A DNA stretch of 42,407 nucleotides from a virus (Duplodnaviria > Heunggongvirae > Uroviricota > Caudoviricetes): positions 1 through 42,407 of the IMG/VR virus record IMGVR_UViG_2565956608_000007; one strand, given 5' to 3'. The translations under genes and the position numbers were made by a program. The number at the start of each line of letters is the position of its first letter. Position 1 is the first letter of the stretch. Below the pieces are notes generated by a model, which saw only the letters and a program-made list of their open reading frames with translations, was not told where the DNA came from and did no database searches. This document shows positions 1,815-41,710 of the stretch, piece by piece.

Positions 1815-2987
1815 CTACAGCGCGGCTGAAATCGCGGTTTTACCGTCATATTCAGCCAGGTATTTACCGTAGTTGCGGAATATCATTTCCGGCCCTTTGT
1901 GGCCCATCTGTCCGGCAAGCCAGAATAGGTTAACGCCCTGGCTAATATGCTTGGTGGCGAATGTGTGCCGCGTCTGGTACGGGTTACGATAGCGCACGCC
2001 AGCTTTTTTCAGGGTCGGCACCCATGCTTTTTTACGGATAGCGTCGGCGTTCGCCCAGGGGTCTCCCGTTTTCGGGTCGCTGAATATGAACTCACTTTTC
2101 ATGAAGGTGTATTGCTTCTGCGCCTGCAGGGCCGCCAGCGCCTCACTGTTCAGCTCCACCTTTCGGGTACCGGCTTTTGTCTTGGTGCCTTTAAGTACCC
2201 CTACGACACTGGCCGCCTGAACGTGGGCTGTGTTCGCGATGGTGTCGAGATCAGGCCAGCGCAGCGCGCACAGTTCGGAGCTCCGCAGACCGGTATTGAA
2301 AGCAAAGCGGAACAGGTTTTCCCATTCCGGGTACCTGCAGCTCTGGTAAATGGCGAGGGTCTCCGCTGGCGTGAACGGGTCAACCTCGTAATCGTCGGCG
2401 CTCGGGCTGCTGTCGATCACGTGGTACCGGCTGGCGCTGACGAGGGTTACCGGGTTAATGGTCAGCAGGCCATCCGTAACAGCTTCATCGATGGCGCTGC
2501 GCAGAAATGAAAGGTTATTCCTGGTCGTTTTCAGTTTTGTTTTCCGGCTGGCTATCCAGTTTTTAAGGACCGCTGGCGTCAGTTCTGACACGTGGAGTTT
2601 ATGCAGGGCTGACAGCGCCGACAGGCATTTTTCATAACCGTTGATAGTCGACGGGGACAGGTTGCGGTTCTGGCAGATTTTCAGGTACTCGTCCAGGTAA
2701 GACTTTATGTTTTTGGTTTTCTTCACCACCCCGAACAGCTCCAGTTTTTTGGAGTTGGGGAAATATTTCGCATATTCAAAGGTGCCACTGACGATCTGGT
2801 TTTGTATCTCCCCGAGCAGGCGCTCGGCGTACTTAACACCGCGCGCGTTTGCTTCCATTTTGGAGAGGGGCTCCCGGCACAGAACCCCTTTGTATGTGAA
2901 AGTGATAACCAGAGTGTCGCCAGTTTTATGCTGGCGGATGGTTACTCCTCTTGGGAGAGATAATGATCCTTGTTCTTTCTTGCCCAC
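1815..2987 (-). CDS. int: tyrosine integrase (lambda-type site-specific recombinase)
   Basis: 390-aa ORF with C-terminal R..HxxR..Y catalytic signature (RHTFATKHI ... RNYGKY); 3' end abuts attL. Confidence 0.9.
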   Translation of the reverse strand: MGKKEQGSLSLPRGVTIRQHKTGDTLVITFTYKGVLCREPLSKMEANARGVKYAERLLGEIQNQIVSGTFEYAKYFPNSKKLELFGVVKKTKNIKSYLDEYLKICQNRNLSPSTINGYEKCLSALSALHKLHVSELTPAVLKNWIASRKTKLKTTRNNLSFLRSAIDEAVTDGLLTINPVTLVSASRYHVIDSSPSADDYEVDPFTPAETLAIYQSCRYPEWENLFRFAFNTGLRSSELCALRWPDLDTIANTAHVQAASVVGVLKGTKTKAGTRKVELNSEALAALQAQKQYTFMKSEFIFSDPKTGDPWANADAIRKKAWVPTLKKAGVRYRNPYQTRHTFATKHISQGVNLFWLAGQMGHKGPEMIFRNYGKYLAEYDGKTAISAAL

Positions 2988-8415: not shown

Positions 8416-10287
8416 ATGACCCCTGCTGAGTTATCTGAAAAATTGTGGGACAACGCCGAAAGAGTTGCGAAATACCTGCTTCCACGAGGACACCTCGAGG
8501 GCAAGGAGTGGTGCGCTGGTAATACCAATGGTGATGCCGGTAAGAGCCTGAAAATCAATCTCGGGGGTAAGAAGACTTGGGCGGATTTTGCAAGCGGCGA
8601 CAGCGGAGACCTGCTGGATCTTTGGGTGTTGGTGCGTAACTGCCAACTGCACGACGCTATGCGAGAAGCGAAAGAGTTCCTTGGGCTGAAGGACGACGAT
8701 AACCACTTTGAGGCAAAGAAGAAGACCTTCTCTCGCCCAACCAAAAAAGGCGTTAAAAAGGCGAGTCATTGCTACGACTACCTGGCTTCCCGTGGTATCA
8801 CCCGGGAGACAGCCGATCAATTCCGTGTTTCGGATGCAGTTGTCTGGTACCACGATGAAAACCGCGAAATTCCGGCAGTAGCGTTTCCGTATCTTCGCAA
8901 TGGCGAGCTGTTGCAGGTAAAGCGAATCGGCACTGAACGACCAAATGGCAAAAAGTTGATCATGGCTGAGGCGGATTGCGAACCATGTCTGTTTGGCTGG
9001 CAGGCTATGGACGCGAAAGCCCGAGCTGTTGTGCTTTGCGAAGGAGAGATTGACTGTATGACCTACTCGCAATTCGGTATCAGTGCTCTATCGGTACCGT
9101 TCGGCGGGGGAAAAGGTGCCAAACAGCAGTGGATCGAATACGAGTATCACAACCTCGACCGATTCGAAGAAATTTGGTTAAGCCTCGATAACGATGATGT
9201 TGGGCGGGAAGCCGCAAAAGAAATTGCTCGCCGTCTGGGTGAGCATCGTTGCCGCCTGGTAGAGCTGCCGCACAAAGATATCAACGAATGCCTAACTGCC
9301 GGGGTGAGCGAGGATGAAATCTGGCAATACTTAGGGACCGCTAAATTCTTTGACCCTGATGAACTCTGTTCTGCGGGTGATCTCCTTCAGGAAACACTGG
9401 ATGCATTCGAACATCGAGATGTTGGGTTATTTTCCAGCCCGTGGGATTCGCTGAACAATAATTTTAAATTCCGAGCCGGTGAACTGACGCTGGTTAACGG
9501 AGTGAACGGCCACGGTAAAACCGAGCTGGTGGGGCATATCGCAGTCAATGCCATGAGCCAAGGAGTTCGCGTATGCATTGCATCGCTGGAACTTAAGCCT
9601 GGGAAAATGTTGGCTCGTCTTACCCGGCAAACCATTTGCAGAAAAAACCCAGAACGTACTGAAATTATCATGACTAACGAGTGGTTTTCTGATCGTCTTT
9701 GGGTGTTCAAGCTCACCGGAACAGCAAAGGCCGGTCGTCTGTTGGAAATATTTGCCTATGCCAGACGCCGTTATGGAATCGATCTTTTCGTAATCGATAA
9801 CTTGGCAAAATGTGGGCTCGATGAAGAGGACTACGGTGGTCAGAAAGAATTTATCGATACCCTCTGCGACTTCAAAAATGAGCACAACTGCCATGTTCTG
9901 CTGGTAACGCATGCCAGAAAAACAAACGAAGCTGCACCAACAGGGAAAATGGATGTTAAAGGCACTGGCGCTTTAACCGACATGCCCGACAACGTTATGG
10001 CCGTCTGGCGTAATATCCCGCGAGAACTGGCGCAGCGCAAGGCTGAAAGAATGGGGTATGAGAGCCTTGATAAGGACGAGCAGACTGCTATCCAAATGCC
10101 CGCCTCAATGATTCGCCTGTTGAAACAACGTGAAGGGGAAGGCTGGATCGGAGACATAGGAGCCAATTTTGATTCCAGATCACATCAGTTTATCGAGGGT
10201 GATAAAGGGCCCTTCAATTACTTGGCTGGCAAACAGCAAAGTGAACTTGATATTGAGTGGGAAGCCACCAACGCAACGAGGTATTAA
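8416..10287 (+). CDS. bifunctional primase-helicase (Toprim domain + DnaB-like P-loop helicase)
   Basis: Toprim motif VVLCEGEIDCMTY; Walker A GVNGHGKTE and Walker B DLFVIDNL; GGAG ribosome-binding site before ATG at 8416. Confidence 0.8.
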   Translation: MTPAELSEKLWDNAERVAKYLLPRGHLEGKEWCAGNTNGDAGKSLKINLGGKKTWADFASGDSGDLLDLWVLVRNCQLHDAMREAKEFLGLKDDDNHFEAKKKTFSRPTKKGVKKASHCYDYLASRGITRETADQFRVSDAVVWYHDENREIPAVAFPYLRNGELLQVKRIGTERPNGKKLIMAEADCEPCLFGWQAMDAKARAVVLCEGEIDCMTYSQFGISALSVPFGGGKGAKQQWIEYEYHNLDRFEEIWLSLDNDDVGREAAKEIARRLGEHRCRLVELPHKDINECLTAGVSEDEIWQYLGTAKFFDPDELCSAGDLLQETLDAFEHRDVGLFSSPWDSLNNNFKFRAGELTLVNGVNGHGKTELVGHIAVNAMSQGVRVCIASLELKPGKMLARLTRQTICRKNPERTEIIMTNEWFSDRLWVFKLTGTAKAGRLLEIFAYARRRYGIDLFVIDNLAKCGLDEEDYGGQKEFIDTLCDFKNEHNCHVLLVTHARKTNEAAPTGKMDVKGTGALTDMPDNVMAVWRNIPRELAQRKAERMGYESLDKDEQTAIQMPASMIRLLKQREGEGWIGDIGANFDSRSHQFIEGDKGPFNYLAGKQQSELDIEWEATNATRY

Positions 10288-10289
10288 AA

Positions 10290-10601
10290 ATGGATCGCCT
10301 AATTAGAGAAATGTCGTACCTCTTTACCAAGCAGCGTTTTTTGGAGCTTCAGGAAGCGGCCAAAGACATCGCAATCGGTCATAGTGACTTTCCTGAGTGT
10401 TTCGGTCTTATTGCTGACGCCATCGCTGAATTTGTTGAAGACACTCCTGATGATGAGTGGCGAGAGTATGAAAAAATCCTCATGCACTACGTTGCTATGC
10501 GTACTCTGACGCTGTGGGGTAACGGGGATAAAGTTACTGATGTCCAGTGGGCACACCCTGGCTGGTTTGGCACTGCTGAAAAGGGAGAAACCATTCAATG
10601 A
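10290..10601 (+). CDS. hypothetical protein
   Basis: 103-aa ORF, stop overlaps the next start (ATGA). Confidence 0.5.
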   Translation: MDRLIREMSYLFTKQRFLELQEAAKDIAIGHSDFPECFGLIADAIAEFVEDTPDDEWREYEKILMHYVAMRTLTLWGNGDKVTDVQWAHPGWFGTAEKGETIQ

Positions 10602-11380
10602 AACTGGAAGCAGCACTCAAACATTTTAGTCCTCAGGGAATGCATATCAGCGACGATGTAAAGGGAACCTCTCCGGATCGTCTCACCGGCACTGATGTTA
10701 TGGCAGCGATTGGTACCACCAGCAGCCGTGCGCGGTTCGGCCTGGCGGCGTTCTTCGGTAAAGCGGGAATCAGCAAAACGGATGAACAGCTCGCAGTTCA
10801 GGCGCTGGCGCGATATGCGATGGATGTCGCACCGAAGAATGTTCGCAAAGCAGCTGGTGGCCAGTTCGGATGGTGTATGCAGATGTTGGCACAATTTGCC
10901 TTTGCTGATTACTCACGTTCAGCGGCTACCAGCGTGACGTGTCACAGTTGCAGTGGTACCGGGTTTATCTCCAGGAATGAGGATGTGGTTAAACATCCTG
11001 GTATTTTCGACGCCGACGGTGCTGAAGTAGTTGCCCCGAAGATTAAAAATGAGCTGGTGAATAGGGTTTGCGGAACATGCGGAGGAAAGAAAGTGATCCT
11101 TGCCCGGTGCAGGTGTGGCGGTAAAGGCGAAGTGTTGGACCGCAAAGCGACCAAAGACCGCGGCGCACCGGTTTTCAAAACGTGTGAACGTTGCTCTGGT
11201 AATGGCTTCTCTGCTATCTCCTCGGCTACAGTACACCGCGCCATTCTGAAGCGTCTCCCTGACCTCCATCAATCCTCATGGTCACGCAACTGGAAACCCT
11301 TCTATGAAATGCTGGTGGATACTCTGCGCCAGGGGGAGCGTCACGCAGCAGTGGAATTTGAGAAGGCGACAACTTATTAA
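10598..11380 (+). CDS. zinc-finger protein, putative late-gene antiterminator (Q-like)
   Basis: Four CxxCxGxG motifs; located between replication and lysis modules and followed by a promoter plus terminator pair. Confidence 0.4.
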   Translation: MKLEAALKHFSPQGMHISDDVKGTSPDRLTGTDVMAAIGTTSSRARFGLAAFFGKAGISKTDEQLAVQALARYAMDVAPKNVRKAAGGQFGWCMQMLAQFAFADYSRSAATSVTCHSCSGTGFISRNEDVVKHPGIFDADGAEVVAPKIKNELVNRVCGTCGGKKVILARCRCGGKGEVLDRKATKDRGAPVFKTCERCSGNGFSAISSATVHRAILKRLPDLHQSSWSRNWKPFYEMLVDTLRQGERHAAVEFEKATTY

Positions 11381-11442
11381 TATGATCGGAGCAAATGTCG
11401 ACACTTTTTTGCGCGTTAGTGTTGACTTTGCATAAGGTTGTC

Positions 11443-11470
11443 TTGTAAGCTTCTGATTATGGAGTATAAC
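11443..11470 (+). promoter_or_regulatory. candidate late promoter (PR'-like): -35 TTGTAA, 16-bp spacer, -10 TATAAC
   Basis: Sigma70-like hexamers read by eye directly downstream of the Q-like gene and about 25 bp upstream of a terminator. Confidence 0.3.
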
Positions 11471-11494
11471 GCCTGTAGATAATTAACCTCGAAA

Positions 11495-11519
11495 AGCCCG
11501 CCACGTTGCGGGTTTTTTT
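11495..11519 (+). terminator. Rho-independent terminator (tR'-like)
   Basis: CCCGC-loop-GCGGG hairpin followed by TTTTTTT. Confidence 0.55.
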
Positions 11520-11674
11520 GTACCCGCATTTCCCGCGCACCGCCCGCGCATTCAATACGTCGAACCAATCCATTTGAAATGAGCCTTTGAGGAAGTCAGT
11601 TAGCGCTGGCGAGCCTCGACGGGCTGGTTTCCTGTGCGGCAAAGGTTCATTTCAAAGTAAGGCATACGCATATC

Positions 11675-12160
11675 ATGAGCATCACGCAAGAACGGCTGAA
11701 AGAGGTTCTGAAGTACGACCCTTTGACTGGTTTATTTGTTTGGATCAAGCGAACAAACTCTCGGTCTACGCCAGGCAATATAGCCGGGAACGCAGATACG
11801 TACGGCTATATCCAGATAATGATCGATAAGAAATTAATCTTCGCTCATCGGTTGGCTTTTTTATACATGGATGGTGCGCTGCCGCCAGCTGATAAGTGTG
11901 TCGATCATATCAATGGCAATCCCAAAGATAACCGATGGGACAACTTACGTATCGTTACCCAGTTTGTTAATCAGCAGAACAGGCATAAGGCCAGAAAAGG
12001 TGCGAAATCTGGGCTAATTGGAGCAAACTGGTGCAAGGATCGTGGCCTGTGGCGTTCTGCGATTAGCGTCAACGGGAAACGCAAAGATCTCGGTAGTTTC
12101 CAAACTGCGGAGTTGGCTCACGAGGCTTACATGAAAGCTAAAGCTGAAATGTGTCGTTAA
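11675..12160 (+). CDS. HNH homing-type endonuclease
   Basis: DHINGNPKDNRWDNLR HNH motif. Confidence 0.7.
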   Translation: MSITQERLKEVLKYDPLTGLFVWIKRTNSRSTPGNIAGNADTYGYIQIMIDKKLIFAHRLAFLYMDGALPPADKCVDHINGNPKDNRWDNLRIVTQFVNQQNRHKARKGAKSGLIGANWCKDRGLWRSAISVNGKRKDLGSFQTAELAHEAYMKAKAEMCR

Positions 12161-12441
12161 CGCCTACACGAATAAAATAAATTAAGCCCTGCCTGTATTA
12201 GTGGGGCTATTTATTTTCTACACAACGGAAATCGCTTTGAGTATGTGACGACATCCCGGTGAGACCAGGCACACTTCCCTGGCGCGGCAAAGCGATACCC
12301 ATTGTGATGAAGCTCAGCGGCGAGCTAGGGAATAGTTTTGCGGTGAATATTCTGGATAAGTAGCCACAAGGCGCGCGTAACCCAATCGGCAGCGCACCGA
12401 TGGAAGCTGGTTCGACTCCAGCCTTCACAATCATTACTACG

Positions 12442-12465
12442 GGCTACCTTCGGGTGGCCTTTTTT
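12442..12465 (+). terminator. Rho-independent terminator with UUCG tetraloop
   Basis: GGCTACC-TTCG-GGTGGCC followed by TTTTTT. Confidence 0.55.
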
Positions 12466-12682
12466 GTTTCCCCTCCTTCTGAGAGAACTCACGGCAATGA
12501 AGTATTGACCGGCGGAATGATTTCGGCGTAATTTGTTTGTGTGGTGAATCCTTTCTAAGCGAAAGGGCGTTCCAGTCAACTGCTATCTGCAGGTATGCGC
12601 GCGGCTTTGCTGACTGGGGTAGAGTCACCGGGAGGCACCCGGCACCATGACAACAACAATACAAGTTTCAAATTCCTTGAGA

Positions 12683-12710
12683 GCCTGCCATAAAACGCAG
12701 GCCTTTTTTT
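12683..12710 (+). terminator. Rho-independent terminator
   Basis: GCCTGC-loop-GCAGGC followed by TTTTTTT. Confidence 0.55.
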
Positions 12711-12860
12711 ATGGTTTTGCAAACTGCTGCTACGCTTTGAGTTGTGGGAAGTAACTGAATGCCCGGTGGTTCTCCTGGACCGATAGTGAATCAGCCGATA
12801 CAGCTTCACCTCTGAGCATAAGTCTTACTCACACCTACCTTACAAATAGTCAACTCATTA

Positions 12861-12887
12861 GCCCGCCATCAACAGCGGGCTTTTATT
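12861..12887 (+). terminator. Rho-independent terminator
   Basis: GCCCGC-loop-GCGGGC followed by TTTTATT. Confidence 0.5.
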
Positions 12888-12939
12888 ATTTCCCCTCAAA
12901 CTTACTGAGAGGATTCATAGCAATTACAGAGGGGGCGTA

Positions 12940-13329
12940 ATGTCCGATCCATTAACCGGCACTGGTGCAGTTCTCGGCGGAGGCCTGCTGGGTTCAGTCC
13001 TGTATGGTGTCTTTACTCATACAGATTTCGGCGTGGTGTTTGGAGCGTTTGGTGGTGCGGTGTTTTACGTCGCGACAGCTGCAAACCTTACGCGTGCTCG
13101 CCTGGCTGCATATTTCCTTACATCATTCATTGTTGGAGTGCTTGGCGCCGGGTTTGTTGGTTCATGGCTAAATGCTGCCTCGAGTTATGAAAAACCACTG
13201 GATGCACTCGGTGCAGTGATTTTGTCTGCACTGTGTATAAAAATCCTAACTTTTCTTAATAACCAGGACCTGAACACCCTGTTCGGTTTTTTCTCACGGT
13301 TACGCGGAGGAGGGGGAAATGGTAATTGA
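12940..13329 (+). CDS. holin
   Basis: 129-aa hydrophobic protein with multiple predicted transmembrane segments at the head of the lysis cassette; GAGGGGG ribosome-binding site. Confidence 0.65.
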   Translation: MSDPLTGTGAVLGGGLLGSVLYGVFTHTDFGVVFGAFGGAVFYVATAANLTRARLAAYFLTSFIVGVLGAGFVGSWLNAASSYEKPLDALGAVILSALCIKILTFLNNQDLNTLFGFFSRLRGGGGNGN

Positions 13330-13597
13330 CCCGTCAGCTGTCTTTAACGCGTTTATCTGCTCGGTGATCGTCGTCGTTCTGATGTTCTACCAGCGCCATG
13401 GTGCCCGGCACCGTCCTTTTATCTCAATCCTGGCGTATATAACCATCCTGGTTTACGCAGTAATCCCATGGCAATTCATCTTCGGCCTCTATCGTGACTC
13501 CAGTTGGCTGGTGGTGATGTCGAACCTCCTGATATGCGCAGCTGTTATGAAGGTCCGGGGAAATCTGGCACGTCTGGTTGATCTTCTGAGGCACTAA
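13319..13597 (+). CDS. second holin-like membrane protein
   Basis: 92-aa hydrophobic protein between holin and endolysin. Confidence 0.5.
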   Translation: MVIDPSAVFNAFICSVIVVVLMFYQRHGARHRPFISILAYITILVYAVIPWQFIFGLYRDSSWLVVMSNLLICAAVMKVRGNLARLVDLLRH

Positions 13598-14139
13598 TGA
13601 CAAAAGACGAAATTTTTGACGCCATTCTTGGCAAAGAGGGCGGGTACGTTAATCACCCCGACGACAAAGGCGGCCCAACAAACTGGGGGATCACGCAAGC
13701 GGTAGCTCGCGCCCACGGTTATAACGGTGATATGCGCAACCTTACCCGCCAGCAGGCGCTGGATATCCTGACTGCTGACTACTGGACAGGGCCACGCTTC
13801 GACCTTGTTTCTGAGGTATCACCAGCCATCGCTGCCGAACTCTGCGACACAGGCGTAAACATGGGCCCATCAGTTCAGACCAAATGGTTTCAGCGCTGGC
13901 TGAATGTGTTCAACATTCAAGGCACGCTCTATCCCGATCTGATTGCTGATGGTTTTATCGGTCCGCGAACTATCAGCGCGTTAAAAAGCTATCTTTCCCG
14001 GCGCGGAAAAGAGGGTGAGTTGGTTATGCTTCGGGCCCTGAATTGTAGCCAGGGTCAGCGTTATCTTGAGCTGGCAGAACAGCGCAGCGCGAACGAGACG
14101 TTTGTTTATGGCTGGGTAAAGGAGCGGGTGGTTATATGA
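13597..14139 (+). CDS. endolysin, GH108-type muramidase with peptidoglycan-binding domain
   Basis: N-terminal motif EGGYVNHPDDKGGPTNWGIT characteristic of GH108 lysins; start overlaps upstream stop (TAATG). Confidence 0.85.
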   Translation: MTKDEIFDAILGKEGGYVNHPDDKGGPTNWGITQAVARAHGYNGDMRNLTRQQALDILTADYWTGPRFDLVSEVSPAIAAELCDTGVNMGPSVQTKWFQRWLNVFNIQGTLYPDLIADGFIGPRTISALKSYLSRRGKEGELVMLRALNCSQGQRYLELAEQRSANETFVYGWVKERVVI

Positions 14140-15849: not shown

Positions 15850-15917
15850 GTGAGCCTGAGGAGCATCGTTAAAGGTGGCGACCTCTCTCGGGCGGTGCTC
15901 CTGTACGACAGGCTCAC
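15850..15917 (+). promoter_or_regulatory. long interrupted inverted repeat in the 5' leader of the cargo operon
   Basis: GTGAGCCTG/AGGAGCA pairs with TGCTCCT/CAGGCTCAC around a ~28-nt loop; ends 5 nt before the AAGGAAA ribosome-binding site. Confidence 0.45.
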
Positions 15918-15934
15918 ACCTTAAAGGAAACGCA

Positions 15935-16363
15935 ATGAAGAAATTTTTCACTGATGCGATAGCAAAAATAACTTTTTACGCGCTGCTCGCCGCTTTGCTA
16001 TTTGCTGTTACTACAGGGGCCGGTTCTTTATTGAGAGTAGTTGCCGCCGCCTACTGGGTGATCGTATTGCTTGGCGCGGTAGTTGGTTTGTTAGCTCTCA
16101 TTATTACGTTTGGTGTCGAGTATTCAAAGGATGATAAGTCCAGGCGGGAGGGTATTGAATACCTTGAACGCTTTGCTAAGCGCAAGAACGCAATAGCAAG
16201 AGTATGGGGATGGTTCTGCCTGGTGCTGGGTGCTTCCATGCTTGCATACGGTGGGTGGGTGTTTACAGCGGTAGCCTACGTAATAGCGTCATTGTTTGTG
16301 CGCCTGTGCTGTTCGCTTGCTCGTGATAAGGTCGAGAAACTAACCAAAAAAGAGGTGGCTTGA
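15935..16363 (+). CDS. integral membrane protein of unknown function
   Basis: 142-aa ORF from ATG 15935, about four hydrophobic segments. Confidence 0.6.
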   Translation: MKKFFTDAIAKITFYALLAALLFAVTTGAGSLLRVVAAAYWVIVLLGAVVGLLALIITFGVEYSKDDKSRREGIEYLERFAKRKNAIARVWGWFCLVLGASMLAYGGWVFTAVAYVIASLFVRLCCSLARDKVEKLTKKEVA

Positions 16364-16957: not shown

Positions 16958-17024
16958 AGCTGATATTACAGGAGCCCTTCACTGAGGGGCTTCGATAATG
17001 TTTTTTGAGTGAGGATTGTTCAGA

Positions 17025-18029
17025 ATGGCTTCGATAAAAGAATCCACTGATGCCAATGGACAATCAAAATATTACGTCCACTGGAAGGATGAAAAATCCG
17101 GTCATGGACGCCGCCGCATTTTTAAGAATATTGATGATGCCGCACATCTTTTCTGGCAAAAACAGAATATCGAGCTGGATTGTCGAACTGCCAGCTGGAC
17201 CGGAATAGACCATTCCTGGACTTTCCGAAAGTTAATTCTGTTTTATCTGGGGTATCAGGCCGGCAAGCTGGAAAAAAATATCATACGGCTGTCGTCATAT
17301 ACGAAATGCCGTCACGATCTTCTCGCGGTAGACGGGCCGATACTGGAAAAAAATATTCTCCATATCAGCCATCGTGATATCGGTGATTCGGTTCGCACCG
17401 GCTGCCATCGCTGGATTCGTTCGGCTTTCTTCCTGCTGGTGGAAAAACGACTCATCGCTTTTAACCCTGTTGACCGTCCCGCGCGCCGGAAGCGTCGACC
17501 CATCACCATACCGCCATCATCATCGGTCAGGGAGCTACTGAATAACGCGCCAGTTCGTGAGCGTATCGCGTGCTGGCTCGGGATTTGTGGCCTGCGAATC
17601 GGTGAGGCTCTGGCGGTTACGTATAACGACGTGTCAGCCGACTGGATCGACATCCGGGGGCATGTTGTTGACGGCGTTATACATGAGGGGCTGAAAAGAG
17701 GAGTGGAGCGCCGGGTACGGATGCCGCGTGAGCTTTTCGCGTTGCTGGATAAAAGTAAACTCGGTACCTCTGAGCCTCTTATCTGCAACCAGTTTACCGG
17801 CACATGCCTCGCTACCAGCTACGGCACTCAGGGCGTTCTCGTCAGAACCCTGAACGACTATGGCATTAAGCGATTCCATCATCTTCGCCACTTTGCTGTA
17901 TCTCGCCTGGCAAACAAAGGCGTCGATATCCTGAAGGTTTCCCGACTTATTGGGCATTCGAACATCAAAACCACAATGGACGTTTACGGTCACCTGTTCG
18001 GTGAAGTGGTGGAGATGGATTTGGACTGA
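17025..18029 (+). CDS. second tyrosine recombinase / integrase embedded in the prophage
   Basis: C-terminal HHLRHFAVSRLANKGVDILKVSRLIGHSNIKTTMDVYGHL (HxxR ... Y signature); GAGGA ribosome-binding site. Confidence 0.85.
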   Translation: MASIKESTDANGQSKYYVHWKDEKSGHGRRRIFKNIDDAAHLFWQKQNIELDCRTASWTGIDHSWTFRKLILFYLGYQAGKLEKNIIRLSSYTKCRHDLLAVDGPILEKNILHISHRDIGDSVRTGCHRWIRSAFFLLVEKRLIAFNPVDRPARRKRRPITIPPSSSVRELLNNAPVRERIACWLGICGLRIGEALAVTYNDVSADWIDIRGHVVDGVIHEGLKRGVERRVRMPRELFALLDKSKLGTSEPLICNQFTGTCLATSYGTQGVLVRTLNDYGIKRFHHLRHFAVSRLANKGVDILKVSRLIGHSNIKTTMDVYGHLFGEVVEMDLD

Positions 18030-18273: not shown

Positions 18274-18876
18274 ATGGCTCCTAAAAAAAGCTTCAGAAAA
18301 GCCTACGTCGGTATCGTTATGGACATGGCATTAGCCCGTAGCAAAATCAGCAATCGGATGGTTGCTCAGCGCTTAGGTGTGGACGAGACGACGATCCGTC
18401 GCTGGCGTAAAGAGAATATCGAGTTTGAGCGCGCTTTCACTGAGGCTCGCGAAGCTCTCAGAGAGAAAATAAACCGCGTCGCCGGTAAGAGCCTGGACGT
18501 TCGTAAACGGAAGGTTGTCACCACATCGCCGGATGGTGTGAAAACCACGATTGAAGATGTGCTGCCCACGCACAACGATATTGCTGTTTTCTCAAAGGTG
18601 CTCGGTCTTGGTACCAGCGTCTATAGCGAGGAAGAACGTCAGCGTGATGTGCTTCGCGAGGTGATGAAACATAAGGTAGCCGGGAAATACTCCGCGCTGG
18701 AGGCGGCGCAGCTGCTTGAGGCTGAGGGAGTAAAAGTTCCGGCAACCCTGCTTATGGAGCTGGGAGCACCGAAAATTTTCGAACCGTTCAACAATATGGA
18801 CGAGGCAGCCAAAGCCGACGCGGCGAACCTGACCCCGCAGGAAGCAGCCGATATCTACAAAAAAATCCTGGGCTGA
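18274..18876 (+). CDS. terminase small subunit (HTH-containing)
   Basis: 200-aa ORF immediately upstream of terL with N-terminal HTH (RMVAQRLGVDETTIRRWRKEN). Confidence 0.55.
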   Translation: MAPKKSFRKAYVGIVMDMALARSKISNRMVAQRLGVDETTIRRWRKENIEFERAFTEAREALREKINRVAGKSLDVRKRKVVTTSPDGVKTTIEDVLPTHNDIAVFSKVLGLGTSVYSEEERQRDVLREVMKHKVAGKYSALEAAQLLEAEGVKVPATLLMELGAPKIFEPFNNMDEAAKADAANLTPQEAADIYKKILG

Positions 18877-19022
18877 AAATTGCAAAAACAGGCGTTTCGA
18901 ACCGTAAAAACGCTATGCACTTTTTGACCCGTTTTATGCACGTTTTATTCATCCCGATTTGACCACTTTTCTGTTCAAAACAGAGGCTTCACGCCGTTTG
19001 CGTGATGGGTGCTGTTGCGCCA

Positions 19023-19073
19023 GTGCGGGTAACGACCATTATGTTAAATCGGGGCGTTTTTGAGGAATTTTTC
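19023..19073 (+). promoter_or_regulatory. conserved ~50-bp element, copy 1 (GTGCGGGTAA-N6-TTATGTTAAAT ...) upstream of terL
   Basis: Near-identical to 22918-22968; contains ATG of a short MLN... uORF. Confidence 0.5.
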
Positions 19074-20691
19074 TGTGCCGATCCCGTTCCCCTTTGACTT
19101 CCGCAAACCGGACTATACCGCCGTGTTTGAGTGGAGAATGGAGAGGCTGGAGCGGATCAGGAAAGCGCCTGAAATGCTTCCGGCACTCCGTGAGTTTTAC
19201 CGCACTAACCCGGCTCAGTTCATCATCGACTGGGGTATGACGACGGACCCGCGTAACCTCGATTATGGCCTGCCTGCCACCATCCCGTTTTTGCTGTTCC
19301 CCCGCCAGGAGGAATGGATTAACTGGATCATGGACAGGCGCGCAAGTCTTGAGCATGGACTGACAGAAAAAAGCCGCGAAATGGGGCTGAGCTGGACCTC
19401 TATCGGTCTGGCCTGTTCGCTTTGCCTGTTCAACAAAGAAATGGTGATCGGGTTCGGTTCCCGTAAAGAGGAATATGTCGATAGCACCGGCGACCCGAAA
19501 GCGCTGTTCTGGAAGGCACGGAAGTTTGTCGAGCTGCTGCCGGTTGAGTTTCGCGGTTCATGGAGTGACAAAAAACATGCCCCTTACATGCGCGTGGAGT
19601 TCCCGGAAACGGGCGCGGTCATTAAGGGAGAGGCTGGCGATAACATTGGCCGTGGTGACCGTACCACGCTTTATTTCGTGGATGAGTCGGCATTTCTCAA
19701 ACGGCCATTACTCATCGATGCTGCGCTCTCTCAGACGACCCGCTGCCGTATAGACCTCTCATCCGTCAACGGCATGAATAACCCGTTTGCCCGTAAGCGC
19801 CACAGCGGAAATATCCCGGTGTTTACGTTCCACTGGCGCAGCGACCCGCGCAAGGATGATGAGTGGTACCGCAACGAATGTCTGAAAATTGATGATCCGA
19901 TTATCGTTGCTCAGGAACTGGACCTGAACTACAGCGCATCCACAGAGGGGATCCTCATTCCTTCTGAATGGGTGCAGGCTGCCGTCGATGCGCATATCAA
20001 ACTGGGTATTCAGCCCAGTGGCCAGCGCCTCGGCGCAATGGATATCGCAGACGAAGGGAAAGACAAAAACGGCTTTTCTTGCCGCTATGGCTTCCTTCTG
20101 CAGAACGTTCACGAATGGTCTGGCATTGGCAGCGACATCTACGCTTCTGTCGTTAAATCGTTTGGGTACTGTGACGATTACGGTCTGGATGAGTTCCGTT
20201 TCGATGAGGACGGTCTGGGTGCTGGTGCGCGTGGCGATGCTCGCGTGATAAACGAGCTCAGGCAGGCTGAAGGCCGGGGAACAATCACAGCTACGCCTTT
20301 CCGTGGTAGCGGTAGCGTATTCGATCCGGAAGATGAAGCCGTCCCTGGTGATAACGGTAAAGCGGCGCGCCTGAATAAAGACTTCTTCGCGAACGCGAAA
20401 GCACAGAGCTGGTGGCATCTTCGCAAGCTGTTTCGAAACACCTTCCGCGCGCTGAACGGGATGGACTACAACCCCGACGAAATCATTTCGATAAGCAGCG
20501 AGATAGAAAATATTGACCGCCTGCTGATGGAGCTTTCACAGCCTACATGGTCGAAAAACGCCGTCGGTAAAATCCTCGTGGATAAACAGCCGGAAGGTAC
20601 AAAATCGCCGAACCTCGCCGACGCCGTGATGATTAACTACGCGCCGATGGATTCCTCTCTTGATAATTGGGCCAAACTGGCCGGAGCGTGA
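19060..20691 (+). CDS. terminase large subunit
   Basis: 543-aa ORF with ATPase Walker B-like YFVDE and nuclease region; TTG start from the ORF track, true start uncertain. Confidence 0.85.
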
Positions 20692-20692
20692 C

Positions 20693-22162
20693 ATGTCCCG
20701 TAAGAAACGCCAGAACGGCGCACAAAAGCCCGTTGCGACAGCTGACGGGTACAACAATTTCACGGCCAAACTTGGCAGCGACACCAGAAACATACAGACG
20801 GGCGGAATGTACATGCCCGGGTACATCAGCCGTAACAGGGTGATGCTGGAGTTTGCGTATCGTTCATCGTTCCTCGTTGGTGCCGGTGTGGACGCGATGG
20901 CTGATGATATGACCCGCAAGGGGATTAACATCAGCTCAAAGCTGAAACCTGGACAAAAGGGCAAGCTCGAAACCTTCTGGGATGAGCTCGCTATATGGGA
21001 TGGTCTTAACGATAACCTCAAATGGTCACGATTATACGGTGGCGCGGTGCTGGTGGTCCTGCTTGAAGGGCAGGATATGTCCTCTCCCCTGAAACTGGAT
21101 CGCATCAAAGAGGGGCAGTTTAAGGGAGTGATGAGCCTTGACCGCTGGATGGTTAACCCGAGTTATTACGATCTCGTTACCGATTACGGTCCCGATTTTG
21201 GGAAACCGAAATATTACAAGGTAATCACGAACCAGCAGGGGATTCCCCCCTGGAAGATCCACCATAGCCGCGTTATCCGCATGGAGGGCGATACGCTTCC
21301 TTTCCAGCAGGCCCAGACGGAAAACGGCTGGGGGATGTCTGTTGTGGAGCGTATTTTCGAGCGTATCGAGGCGTTTGATACTGCGACCGTCGGCACCACA
21401 CAGCTGATCCACAAAGCGCATCTGCGAACCTACAGCATTGAAGACCTGCGCAAGATTCTTGCTACCGGAGGCGACCTTGAAAAGGCGCTGATGAAGCACC
21501 TGGACATGATACGTCAGTTCCAGACCATCGAAGGCATGACCATCATGGATGGTAAGGATAAGTTCGAAACCCACAGCTATACGTTTGCGGGTATCGCTGA
21601 TGTCCTTCTGCGCTTTGCTGAGCAGGTTTCCGGCGCGACGGGAATTCCTCTCGTCCGTTTGTTCGGGCAGTCCCCTGCAGGTTTCAACACCGGCGACGGC
21701 GATCTGGAAAACTACTACAGCCGGGTTAACTCGCTGCAGGAGAGACGCTTACGCCGCCATATCCGCTGGTTGCTCGATATCTCCTGGCGTTCTCTGTTCG
21801 GTGAGCCACTGCCTGATGATTTTACTTTCGAGTTTAACAAGCTCTGGGAGATGTCAGACGTGGACCGTGCAACGATGGCGAACAATGTGGTTACTGCACT
21901 CGGTACCGCCGTTCGTGACCTCGGAATGCCTCCGGCAGCCGCGCTTAACGACCTCAGGAACATTTCTGATGTGATTGGGATCGGTGGTTCTATCACTGAC
22001 GAGGACATAGAAGATGCGAAGGCCCAGTGGGAGGAGGATGAACCTGAAACCATCCCTCCGCCGCCGTTCGGAGATCCAGTATCGAAAAAGCCTGTTGGCG
22101 ATAGCAAACCAGATAGGGCAGATCGTCGATGGTACCTACGATGGTTCACAGGCCAGCGCTGA
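20693..22162 (+). CDS. portal protein
   Basis: About 490-aa ORF directly after terL; portal-like size and position; start set at ATG 20693. Confidence 0.7.
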   Translation: MSRKKRQNGAQKPVATADGYNNFTAKLGSDTRNIQTGGMYMPGYISRNRVMLEFAYRSSFLVGAGVDAMADDMTRKGINISSKLKPGQKGKLETFWDELAIWDGLNDNLKWSRLYGGAVLVVLLEGQDMSSPLKLDRIKEGQFKGVMSLDRWMVNPSYYDLVTDYGPDFGKPKYYKVITNQQGIPPWKIHHSRVIRMEGDTLPFQQAQTENGWGMSVVERIFERIEAFDTATVGTTQLIHKAHLRTYSIEDLRKILATGGDLEKALMKHLDMIRQFQTIEGMTIMDGKDKFETHSYTFAGIADVLLRFAEQVSGATGIPLVRLFGQSPAGFNTGDGDLENYYSRVNSLQERRLRRHIRWLLDISWRSLFGEPLPDDFTFEFNKLWEMSDVDRATMANNVVTALGTAVRDLGMPPAAALNDLRNISDVIGIGGSITDEDIEDAKAQWEEDEPETIPPPPFGDPVSKKPVGDSKPDRADRRWYLRWFTGQR

Positions 22163-22766
22163 CAGCATTTCGAAAACGCTGGTGGACTATTCCGAGGTAA
22201 TCAGCGACTGGGCAGAGCAGGTCGGGCGAAGGATGTTTGCCCAGGTCGAGCAGGAGGAATGGAACCTGTGGAAATCGGTATCAGAGGAAATCGGCGCTGG
22301 CCTGCGCGATGTGGTGGGTAATACCCCCGTCGGTCAGGTGGCGCAGGATATCGTGTATCGCCAGATTCAGCTGATGAAGTCCCTGCCGCTGGAAGCAGCC
22401 GATCGCGTGATGGACATACAACAGCGCGCAATGCAGGCGGTTATCAGTGGCGAACGTCCGGACGAGCTCTACGAGATGATCATGGCCTCCGGTGACGTGG
22501 CCGCCAGCAGGGCGCAGCTGATTGCCCGTACAGAGATTGGACGTGCTACCGGCGCGCTGACGCAGGCCAGAGCCCTTTCGGTTGGCTCAGAGGGCTACTG
22601 GTGGCGTATTGAGGGGGCCGGAACGCGGGATTCTCACCGCAAGATGAAAGATAAATTTGTGCGCTGGGATAACCCGCCGACGCTGGACGGTATGATCGGA
22701 CACGCCGGATGTTTGCCGAACTGCAAATGCTGGCCTGAAGTACAGATTCCAGCACCGAGAAAATGA
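22014..22766 (+). CDS. Mu F-like head morphogenesis protein
   Basis: C-terminal motif GMIGHAGCLPNCKCW typical of MuF/SPP1 gp7 proteins; 5' end overlaps the portal ORF by 149 nt, start uncertain. Confidence 0.65.
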   Translation: MRRPSGRRMNLKPSLRRRSEIQYRKSLLAIANQIGQIVDGTYDGSQASADSISKTLVDYSEVISDWAEQVGRRMFAQVEQEEWNLWKSVSEEIGAGLRDVVGNTPVGQVAQDIVYRQIQLMKSLPLEAADRVMDIQQRAMQAVISGERPDELYEMIMASGDVAASRAQLIARTEIGRATGALTQARALSVGSEGYWWRIEGAGTRDSHRKMKDKFVRWDNPPTLDGMIGHAGCLPNCKCWPEVQIPAPRK

Positions 22767-22917
22767 AAAATACGGCTTTGAGCATTCATTTCATGCGAAC
22801 TGCAATACCCGCGAAATGTTATGAAAATGTTGTATTCGAAAAGGCCGATTTTCAGCCCAGTTAATCGCTACTTTTACGGCTTTAAGGGGACATTTTAATC
22901 GAGTTCATTTTCGTCGG

Positions 22918-22968
22918 TGCGGGTAAGAACCCTTATGTTAAATAGCCCGTTATTTCGAACATTTTTCC
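22918..22968 (+). promoter_or_regulatory. conserved ~50-bp element, copy 2, upstream of the protease/scaffold gene
   Basis: Matches 19023-19073: identical 10-mer and 11-mer blocks plus a similar downstream tract. Confidence 0.5.
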
Positions 22969-22979
22969 CATCTCACAAG

Positions 22980-23002
22980 GTCGCCTCCGGGCGGCCTTTT
23001 TG
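22980..23002 (+). terminator. Rho-independent terminator
   Basis: GGTCGCC-TCCG-GGCGGCC followed by TTTTT. Confidence 0.5.
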
Positions 23003-23027
23003 TTGCCCGTAATCGAGCAGGTAACCC

Positions 23028-41347: not shown

Positions 41348-41710
41348 TGGTGGAGCTGGCGGGAGTTGAACCCGCGTCCGAAATTCCTACATCCTCGGTA
41401 CTACATGCTTAGTCAGTCTTTACATTCGCTTGCCAGCTGCGGACGGACACGCCACTAACAAACTAGCCTGATTAAGTTTTAACGCTTCAACCCCAGGCAG
41501 GGCTTCCACGCGATCTCTTTTGGGTTTGACCTCTCTTGATCCCCGTCCTAAGAGCGGAGGCTAGGGAGAGAGGGCTCTAAGCAGGTTATTAAGCTGCTAA
41601 AGCGTAGTTTTCGTCGTTTGCGACTATTTTTTGCGGCTTTTTACGAGGCCAACCGCCCCTCGGCATGCACCTTGGGTTTCGCAAATCCCGTCGAATCCAG
41701 AATCAGCCCC
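41348..41710 (-). ncRNA. ssrA: tmRNA (transfer-messenger RNA, SsrA)
   Basis: Minus-strand sequence begins GGGGCTGATTCTGGATTCGACGGG and ends ...GGTTCAACTCCCGCCAGCTCCACCA; 363 nt; directly downstream of smpB. Confidence 0.95.
41355..41384. repeat. attR core inside ssrA (GCTGGCGGGAGTTGAACCCGCGTCCGAAAT)
   Basis: 29/30 identical to 1663-1692. Confidence 0.65.

Follow-up and report, generated by a model that had tools for sequence, protein, structure and literature searches.

Sites for the Xer recombinases are well known from bacterial chromosomes, from plasmids, from filamentous and other non-tailed phages, and from the pdif modules of Acinetobacter. Two plasmid sites have been described together with their accessory proteins: at psi, XerCD acts with PepA and ArcA, and at cer it acts with PepA and ArgR, in both cases resolving plasmid multimers. 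The mosaicism of tailed phages is usually ascribed to homologous or illegitimate recombination. A 42,407-nucleotide stretch of DNA from a tailed phage of the Caudoviricetes (IMG/VR virus record IMGVR_UViG_2565956608_000007, positions 1 to 42,407; hereafter the window) holds a prophage in which one short element occurs twice, ahead of the terminase gene terL and again ahead of the scaffold gene, and both copies are, judged from their sequence, very probably Xer-type recombination sites of the dif/psi class. The initial annotation had offered three readings of the duplicated element: a late promoter or activator site, a leader-peptide attenuator, or a recombination scar bracketing the terL-portal-MuF block. 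The last of these came nearest, for the copies do bracket that block and are related to recombination, but they are conserved and apparently active host Xer sites rather than scars. In a literature search that left most subscription journals outside its reach, no report was found of Xer sites as junction-specific direct repeats in the late operons of tailed phages.

The duplication had been described as an identical 10-mer, a variable 6-bp block and an identical 11-mer. Both copies are real and lie on the plus strand, as GTGCGGGTAA-CGACCA-TTATGTTAAAT at 19023-19049 and as GTGCGGGTAA-GAACCC-TTATGTTAAAT at 22917-22943, the second starting at 22917 and not, as had been given, at 22918. When one base is added at the left, each copy resolves into two 11-bp arms with a 6-bp centre between them (Table 1). 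The dif site of E. coli, at which XerCD with FtsK resolves chromosome dimers, is GGTGCGCATAA-TGTATA-TTATGTTAAAT (PMC3025954). Against it, the XerD arm is without mismatch at either phage site, while the XerC arm has three mismatches at the terS-like/terL junction (site J1) and two at the MuF/scaffold junction (site J3). At both sites the arms stand in imperfect inverted repeat with the inner bases ...TAA and TTA..., as is found at Xer sites. The XerC arm of J3, GGTGCGGGTAA, is also present among the plasmid xrs listed in the supplement of 10.1101/2024.04.05.588136. The pattern GTGCGGGTAA-N6-TTATGTTAAAT, with up to three mismatches allowed, has exactly two matches in the window and none in 100 dinucleotide-preserving shuffles, and a repeat finder returned the two copies as alike over 35 nt at 83% identity. 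Two further statements of the initial annotation hold: a similar T-rich tract, TT-N5-ATTTTTC, begins 11 nt past the 11-mer in both copies, and the intergenic gaps are long, at about 200 nt (18877-19074) and about 260 nt (22767-23027).

Table 1. Positions of the two Xer-type sites, their flanks and other features of the window
Feature	Position	Strand	Remarks
Xer core site J1, terS-like/terL junction	19022-19049	+	28 bp; XerC arm AGTGCGGGTAA 19022-19032, centre CGACCA 19033-19038, XerD arm TTATGTTAAAT 19039-19049
Xer core site J3, MuF/scaffold junction	22916-22943	+	28 bp; XerC arm GGTGCGGGTAA 22916-22926, centre GAACCC 22927-22932, XerD arm TTATGTTAAAT 22933-22943
J1 XerC-side non-coding region (flavour A)	18877-19021	+	145 nt
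J3 XerC-side non-coding region (flavour B)	22767-22915	+	149 nt
J1 right flank	19050-19074	+	TT-GAGGA-ATTTTTC at 19060-19073; overlaps terL ribosome-binding site
J3 right flank	22944-22976	+	TT-CGAAC-ATTTTTC at 22954-22967
Intrinsic terminator hairpin and T-run	22977-22998	+	Terminator scan and folding
Gene block between both sites	19075-22766	+	Open reading frame list and annotation of a 97%-identical E. coli prophage
terL	19075-20691	+	GTG start
DUF1073 portal gene	20660-22162	+	Open reading frame
MuF-like head morphogenesis protein gene	22014-22766	+	Open reading frame
Second tyrosine recombinase gene	17016-18029	+	337 amino acids; Pfam Phage_integrase; within late region
terS-like helix-turn-helix gene	18274-18876		200 amino acids; directly downstream of second recombinase
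Transfer-messenger RNA gene (ssrA)	41348-41710	-	Prophage ends inside its 3' end
att direct repeats	1663-1692 and 41355-41384		30 bp, 97% identical; mark prophage ends
Integrase gene	1815-2987	-	
Q antiterminator gene	10598-11380		PF03589
HNH endonuclease gene	11675-12160		
Holin gene	12940		

Compared with dif, the phage sites have the same 28-bp layout, the identical XerD arm, 8 or 9 of the 11 positions of the XerC arm and a 6-bp centre; they differ in lying away from the replication terminus, in being two per element and in having centres unrelated to TGTATA. The chromosomal site also needs no flank on its XerC side, whereas the phage sites have a conserved one. The psi site of pSC101, which reads GGTGCGCGCAA-GATCCA-TTATGTTAAAC in its record, and the psi-like site of IncF plasmids share with the phage sites a 6-bp centre and a non-coding region on the XerC side, with GAGT 15 to 12 nt before the XerC arm and, in the case of J3, TGTTR-N6-TGTTR about 100 to 84 nt before it; the IncF site and J3 are 81% identical over 53 bp. 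The psi repeat lies on the opposite strand, however, the upstream regions have no significant profile similarity, and psi occurs once per plasmid where the phage sites occur twice per genome within a late operon. The cer site of ColE1, GGTGCGTACAA-TTAAGGGA-TTATGGTAAAT, likewise combines an arm-centre-arm core with an upstream accessory region, and the ATGCA and ATTCA words upstream of J1 resemble halves of its ARG box. It differs in its 8-bp centre and its TTATGGTAAAT arm, and also in its ARG box, an inverted repeat some 105 bp upstream; at J1 the repeats are direct ones and stand 91 to 70 nt ahead of the XerC arm.

On their XerC side the sites are flanked by about 110-150 nt that stay conserved regardless of the neighbouring genes, in two forms that we call flavours A and B. 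Flavour A lies on the same side and at the same distance as the accessory sequences of cer and psi, and at J1 and J3 alike the length of non-coding DNA fits the 150-200 bp or so of accessory DNA at such sites. Flavour A is marked by helically phased direct repeats set one helical turn apart, TATGCAC, TATGCAC and TATTCAT, at 18914-18920, 18935-18941 and 18946-18952; it is kept in 21 non-redundant units at J1 and at J2, the terL/portal junction of relatives, irrespective of the flanking genes. Flavour B carries the direct repeat TGTTA-N6-TGTTG (22817-22832), placed 99 to 84 nt ahead of the XerC arm; no other block is as well conserved across 11 non-redundant J3 units, and the pattern occurs twice in the window against 0.39 occurrences expected. 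In psi, for comparison, the ArcA site reads TGTTG-N6-TGTTA on the opposite strand and spans 98 to 81 nt ahead of its XerC arm. Among known accessory sequences, conservation is itself poor (10.1101/2024.04.05.588136). Since profiles of the phage upstream regions do not reach those of psi or cer at significance, it is from position and layout that an accessory role is argued here, and no homology to the plasmid accessory sequences is claimed.

On the XerD side, the TT-N5-ATTTTTC motif is common to J1, J2 and J3 units and to the IncF plasmid site. The terminator that follows J3 belongs to the phage backbone and not to the Xer unit, because site-less relatives (L215, L226, L231 and L262; loci are given by L numbers) retain it directly after the MuF stop codon. 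The MuF/scaffold junction is a general insertion hot spot. In the E. coli LHM10-1 prophage, which is without Xer sites, it holds a feature annotated as 'tRNA-OTHER' (L003, 6722-6831), and small unrelated open reading frames are present there in L198, L200 and L219.

Conservation of the sites was followed in samples of relatives, and many further sites came from a pattern scan of viral contigs and from a second protein-anchored sample. The first sample comprised 66 viral contigs that encode the neighbouring second tyrosine recombinase (homologues of 17016-18029): 49 have both sites at the same distances, six have one and 11 have none, most of these last stopping before or at the expected position. 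In addition, 68 loci were picked by similarity of the scaffold protein and not by the presence of a site, and at least one site was found in 57 of them. J1 is kept in at least 55 related loci. Across about 250 related sites the XerD arm is invariant, the XerC arm exists in more than 20 variants, and the centre is always 6 bp long, with more than 25 different sequences that group by junction; in one relative (L059) both dif arms are exact around another centre (GGTGCGCATAA-GCACCA-TTATGTTAAAT). A constant XerD arm beside a varying XerC arm and centre is the rule by which Xer sites were recognized in a survey of enterobacterial plasmids and other secondary replicons (10.1101/2024.04.05.588136), and the related phage sites, with their constant XerD arm and non-conserved 6-bp centre, follow it.

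The placement of the sites is equally regular. In the head-gene block they occupy J1, with centres CGACCA, CGGTCA and relatives of these, J2, with centre CAGTCA, or J3, with centres GAACCC, GAACCA, GAGTCA and relatives, and all are oriented with the genes. Among the 68 scaffold-sampled loci, J1 occurs only alongside the terL type of the window and J2 only alongside a PBSX-type terL. Centres are largely specific to a junction in these loci, yet 3 of 16 J1 sites hold the J2 sequence CAGTCA. The sites recur across Escherichia, Klebsiella, Citrobacter, Enterobacter and Pantoea, and the exact XerC-arm variant was met in 16 stretches from species representatives of Citrobacter, Pantoea, Enterobacter, Pseudocitrobacter, Klebsiella and others. 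The J2 unit is also present in cultured Klebsiella phages such as Mulock, GZ7 and RCIP0034, where it is unannotated in the deposited genomes. Outside the head genes, Xer-type units with the same upstream flavours are found directly after 82-type Q antiterminator genes (PF06530) of other, unrelated lambdoid-like phages (L087, 4855-4882; L095, 2098-2125; L135, 8082-8109), where they occupy the position expected of the late promoter.

Three other records that came up in these searches may be mentioned. The head genes of 'Elizabethkingia phage EKP1' (OM284015.1; L002/L007) are about 76% identical to those of the E. coli prophage, and its Xer sites are of enterobacterial type (XerD arm TTATGTTAAAT), so that the Flavobacteriia host stated for this phage looks doubtful. 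A 275-kb plasmid of Klebsiella sp. WOUb02 (L285) has sites at 57-83 and 1737-1763 with the same XerC-arm variant, direct repeats 1.68 kb apart that may delimit an Xer-bounded module outside phage. Yersinia phage YP3 (L293, PV092592.1) was given no weight, as its record has the look of a rearrangement or a chimera: 13 kb separate terL from the terS-like gene, which has a gin invertase and a second set of tail genes beside it, and a whole J3-type unit with its terminator is duplicated between terL and portal.

Independent support for the identity of the sites comes from a mobile element and from recombinant joints. Harmer et al. describe IS1202-group insertion sequences (IS) such as ISKpn21 as inserting 5 bp from the XerC arm, and they suggest an interaction of the transposase with site-bound XerC (PMC10132070). 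In the relative L010, a 3,344-bp element (10009-13352) interrupts the J1 unit exactly 5 bp from the XerC arm. It has TGT...ACA ends with imperfect terminal repeats and a 5-bp duplication, GCGCC, and encodes a transposase of the ISNCY family (496 bits against a cut-off of 250), the category that includes the IS1202 group. The end of this IS, 100% identical over 300 bp, also lies 5 bp from a chromosomal-type dif in L099, so that, as read from these insertions, the IS recognizes J1 as a dif-type site. The L010 element is itself a 'transporter' IS of the IS1202 group, with a DUF6904 passenger gene and a nested IS5-family element.

Several relatives appear, on comparison of their sequences, to have swapped or lost gene blocks exactly at Xer-type sites, with joints inside the 28-bp core. 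Up to the core, L044 is 96-100% identical to the window; past it no match to the window is left, and the right side instead resembles L173, at 88-100%. In L133 the left side is that of L173 and the right side that of L148, and in L141 a J2-type left side stands ahead of terL. At L203 (in the L080 contig) a PBSX terL is followed by a single site and then by the scaffold gene, with no portal or MuF gene within 7 kb; this site is composed of a J2 left side, the centre CAGTCA and a J3 right side. In siblings of L203, L201 for instance, both sites are present, separated by 2,295 bp. The simple derivation of L203 from L201 by deletion was rejected as the two are not isogenic, and for that reason only the architecture of L203 is used as evidence. 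The two centres involved in L203, CAGTCA and GAACCA, agree at the two bases beside the XerD arm, and retention of the left-site centre in L203 would be expected from exchange of the XerD strand resolved by replication. More distant E. coli prophages have megablast similarity that spans 19062-22756 of the window, and hence ends at both sites.

The mechanism that these observations suggest, and that we consider probable though well short of certain, is that host XerCD recombines like sites on phage multimers. XerD would bind the perfect right arm and XerC the left arm. In the least secure step of the scheme, the upstream region, acting like the accessory sequences of plasmids and probably as the topological filter known for psi and cer, would favour recombination between like sites on one supercoiled molecule. 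Among circular replicative forms, the same site present twice in a dimer would then recombine, as would like sites in a heterodimer with a related phage or prophage resident in the same cell. Such recombination would resolve multimers and fix one crossover at a module border, so that blocks such as terL-portal-MuF could be exchanged as cassettes; the pattern of exchange is seen in the relatives, with host XerCD as its presumed agent. The different centres (CGACCA and GAACCC) would block recombination of J1 with J3, an event that would delete essential genes. Of all this, the anatomy, conservation and placement of the sites, the IS insertions and the joints within the core are observed, whereas binding by the two recombinases, dependence on XerCD, the part played by the upstream DNA and any advantage for the phage are inferred.

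Some observations weigh against this account. The sites are dispensable, in that close relatives are without them or have decayed copies. Homologous recombination could in principle also produce joints that fall within 28 bp of identity, and the 'parents' compared are relatives and not true parents, in contigs that can be misassembled. Neither J1xJ3 hybrid joint of this lineage, deletion or circle, was found in viral contigs, an absence also consistent with different centres preventing deletion of terL-portal-MuF. Of the proposed accessory sequences, the ArcA-like repeat of J3 is oriented opposite to that of psi, and when pSC101, ColE1 and an IncF site were searched by nhmmer with profiles made from the upstream regions, the best E was 0.03, which is not significant. 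The common orientation of the sites, the motif on their XerD side and the units after Q genes leave room for a role linked to transcription.

That last possibility, in the form of a late promoter or a loading site for an activator or antiterminator before terL and the scaffold gene, draws on the -10-like TAAAT within TTATGTTAAAT, on the orientation of every copy with transcription, on the similar units that directly follow Q antiterminator genes in other phages, and on the motif kept 11-24 nt downstream of the sites. It is nevertheless very improbable: a scan gave no sigma-70-like promoter at either site, a -35 is missing, and the best candidate for a -10 (TAAATC or TAAATA, by inspection) is without the crucial final T. 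A Q gene is present in the prophage itself, with the terminator-rich stretch at about 12440-12880 taken as its leader, and relatives with the same gene order manage without the element, while what the element does resemble, across both arms and with the correct spacing, is dif and psi, and a dif-targeting IS recognizes it. The leader-peptide proposal is scarcely credible. Short open reading frames with similar beginnings (MLN) do open in both copies, as had been reported, but MLN is the translation of ATG-TTA-AAT in the invariant XerD arm and arises at chromosomal dif sites as well. Across sites these frames vary from 3 to 100 amino acids, the commonest length being 7 even within one junction type, and no Shine-Dalgarno sequence precedes the ATG. 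Folding of the RNA likewise disclosed no alternative hairpins, copy 1 folding no better than its shuffles (z = +1.2) and copy 2 yielding the terminator hairpin only, and the element had no Rfam match at gathering thresholds or at E <= 1.

Other explanations accept recombination and assign it differently. The sites could be used by the second tyrosine recombinase of the phage itself, in the manner of Cre and loxP by the pac site of phage P1, for example to circularise terminally redundant DNA after injection. This 337-residue Phage_integrase-family protein is encoded 1 kb upstream of J1, its gene and the terS-like gene are kept as a pair in 66 viral contigs, most of them with both sites at fixed distances, and J1 directly follows the terS-like gene, a position where pac sites often lie. 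The obligate co-occurrence of site and recombinase that a Cre/loxP-like system calls for was not found, however. A complete 37-kb Klebsiella phage genome, and many other loci like it, has a J2 site and a single integrase only, so the phage's own second enzyme is not required, and in L042 and L065 the recombinase is present with no site; as each occurs without the other, the two are not tied. The enzyme is moreover only remotely like XerC/XerD (E about 1e-6) and would not be expected to need dif-identical arms, and we regard its use of the sites as improbable. A role as secondary attachment sites, for integration into chromosomal dif or plasmid Xer sites like that of integrative mobile elements exploiting Xer (IMEX), is more remote still and extremely improbable: the J3 centre GAACCC is one base off the IncF psi-like centre GATCCC, with flanks that are also similar, but the prophage encodes an integrase and is inserted in ssrA between att repeats, neither centre matches dif TGTATA beside the cleavage points, and no contig joins phage to dif through these sites. 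Less easily set aside, though in our estimate rather unlikely, is the view of the Xer units as selfish or neutral passengers ('morons'), spread by hitchhiking on module exchange or by Xer-mediated insertion, with no gain for the phage, recombination as a side effect, and cores kept because recombining sites spread. Close relatives do differ in the presence of sites, and decayed copies exist; in site-less alleles terL abuts portal and the MuF stop codon comes directly before the terminator, and other relatives hold other small inserted genes at the same junctions. Set against this are the presence of a site in most of the independently sampled scaffold loci, an XerD arm that stays invariant where flanks have diverged to below 60% identity, and strongly conserved blocks in the upstream 100-150 bp, which point to selection beyond the core, albeit selection that could act at the level of the element.

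The sites also differ from the known mobile systems that they partly resemble. As in the pdif modules of Acinetobacter, Xer sites delimit blocks of genes that seem to pass from one replicon to another, and an IS1202-group IS inserts 5 bp from the XerC arm. In pdif modules, however, the sites are inversely oriented and enclose resistance or accessory genes on plasmids, whereas the phage sites are direct repeats in all relatives, have different centres and bracket genes essential for virion assembly. With IMEX (CTX-phi, VGJ-phi, TLC-phi and the gonococcal genetic island) they would share the reliance of mobile DNA on host XerCD and, potentially, recombination between partly different centres by exchange of a single strand; IMEX are without an integrase and reside at chromosomal dif, whereas this prophage has an integrase, is inserted in ssrA and carries its sites internally, and it is thus not an IMEX. 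Phage P1, also temperate and tailed, has a tyrosine-recombinase site near its packaging genes, and Cre/loxP serves it in circularisation and dimer resolution, but P1 uses its own enzyme at one site, whereas the arms here are of host type and the extra recombinase is unlinked to the sites.

If XerCD does act at these junctions, the exchange of packaging and portal cassettes would have a mechanism that is defined and can be tested, and the sites would be a new class of Xer substrate, of use in engineering phage modules with enzymes made by the host. It is also possible, though we advance the idea with considerable doubt, that temperate tailed phages of Enterobacterales use host XerCD as a natural system of cassette exchange in which no homology is needed. 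Blocks between sites that differ in their centres at fixed junctions (terS/terL, terL/portal, MuF/scaffold and after Q), those with the terminase and portal genes included, would then be excised as circles and swapped between co-resident phages or prophages. Some bacterial immune sensors of the Avs/AVAST type recognize terminase and portal, and such a system, if real, would drive phage mosaicism in a site-specific way and might also help phages to escape defence. Unannotated Xer units can, in any case, be mistaken for promoters or small genes, as they were in the initial annotation.

The prophage is about 39.7 kb long and inserted in ssrA. Its host is E. coli, since the smpB-ssrA flank is 100% identical to that of E. 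coli strains, and five complete E. coli genomes hold prophages 97% identical over the region. The prophage's Q-dependent late leader is probably the terminator-rich stretch at about 12440-12880. Within 12185-12881 (plus strand), between the HNH endonuclease and holin genes, a match to the small RNA STnc100 of Rfam (12512-12714, 55.7 bits) sits amid four terminator-like hairpins. There are two endolysin-like genes on the plus strand, at 13597-14139 and 15875-16363: the one within the lysis cassette is of the GH108 family with a PG_binding_3 domain, and the other, which matches PHROG 162, lies about 1.7 kb downstream of it. Between them are open reading frames of no assigned function and further terminator-like hairpins.

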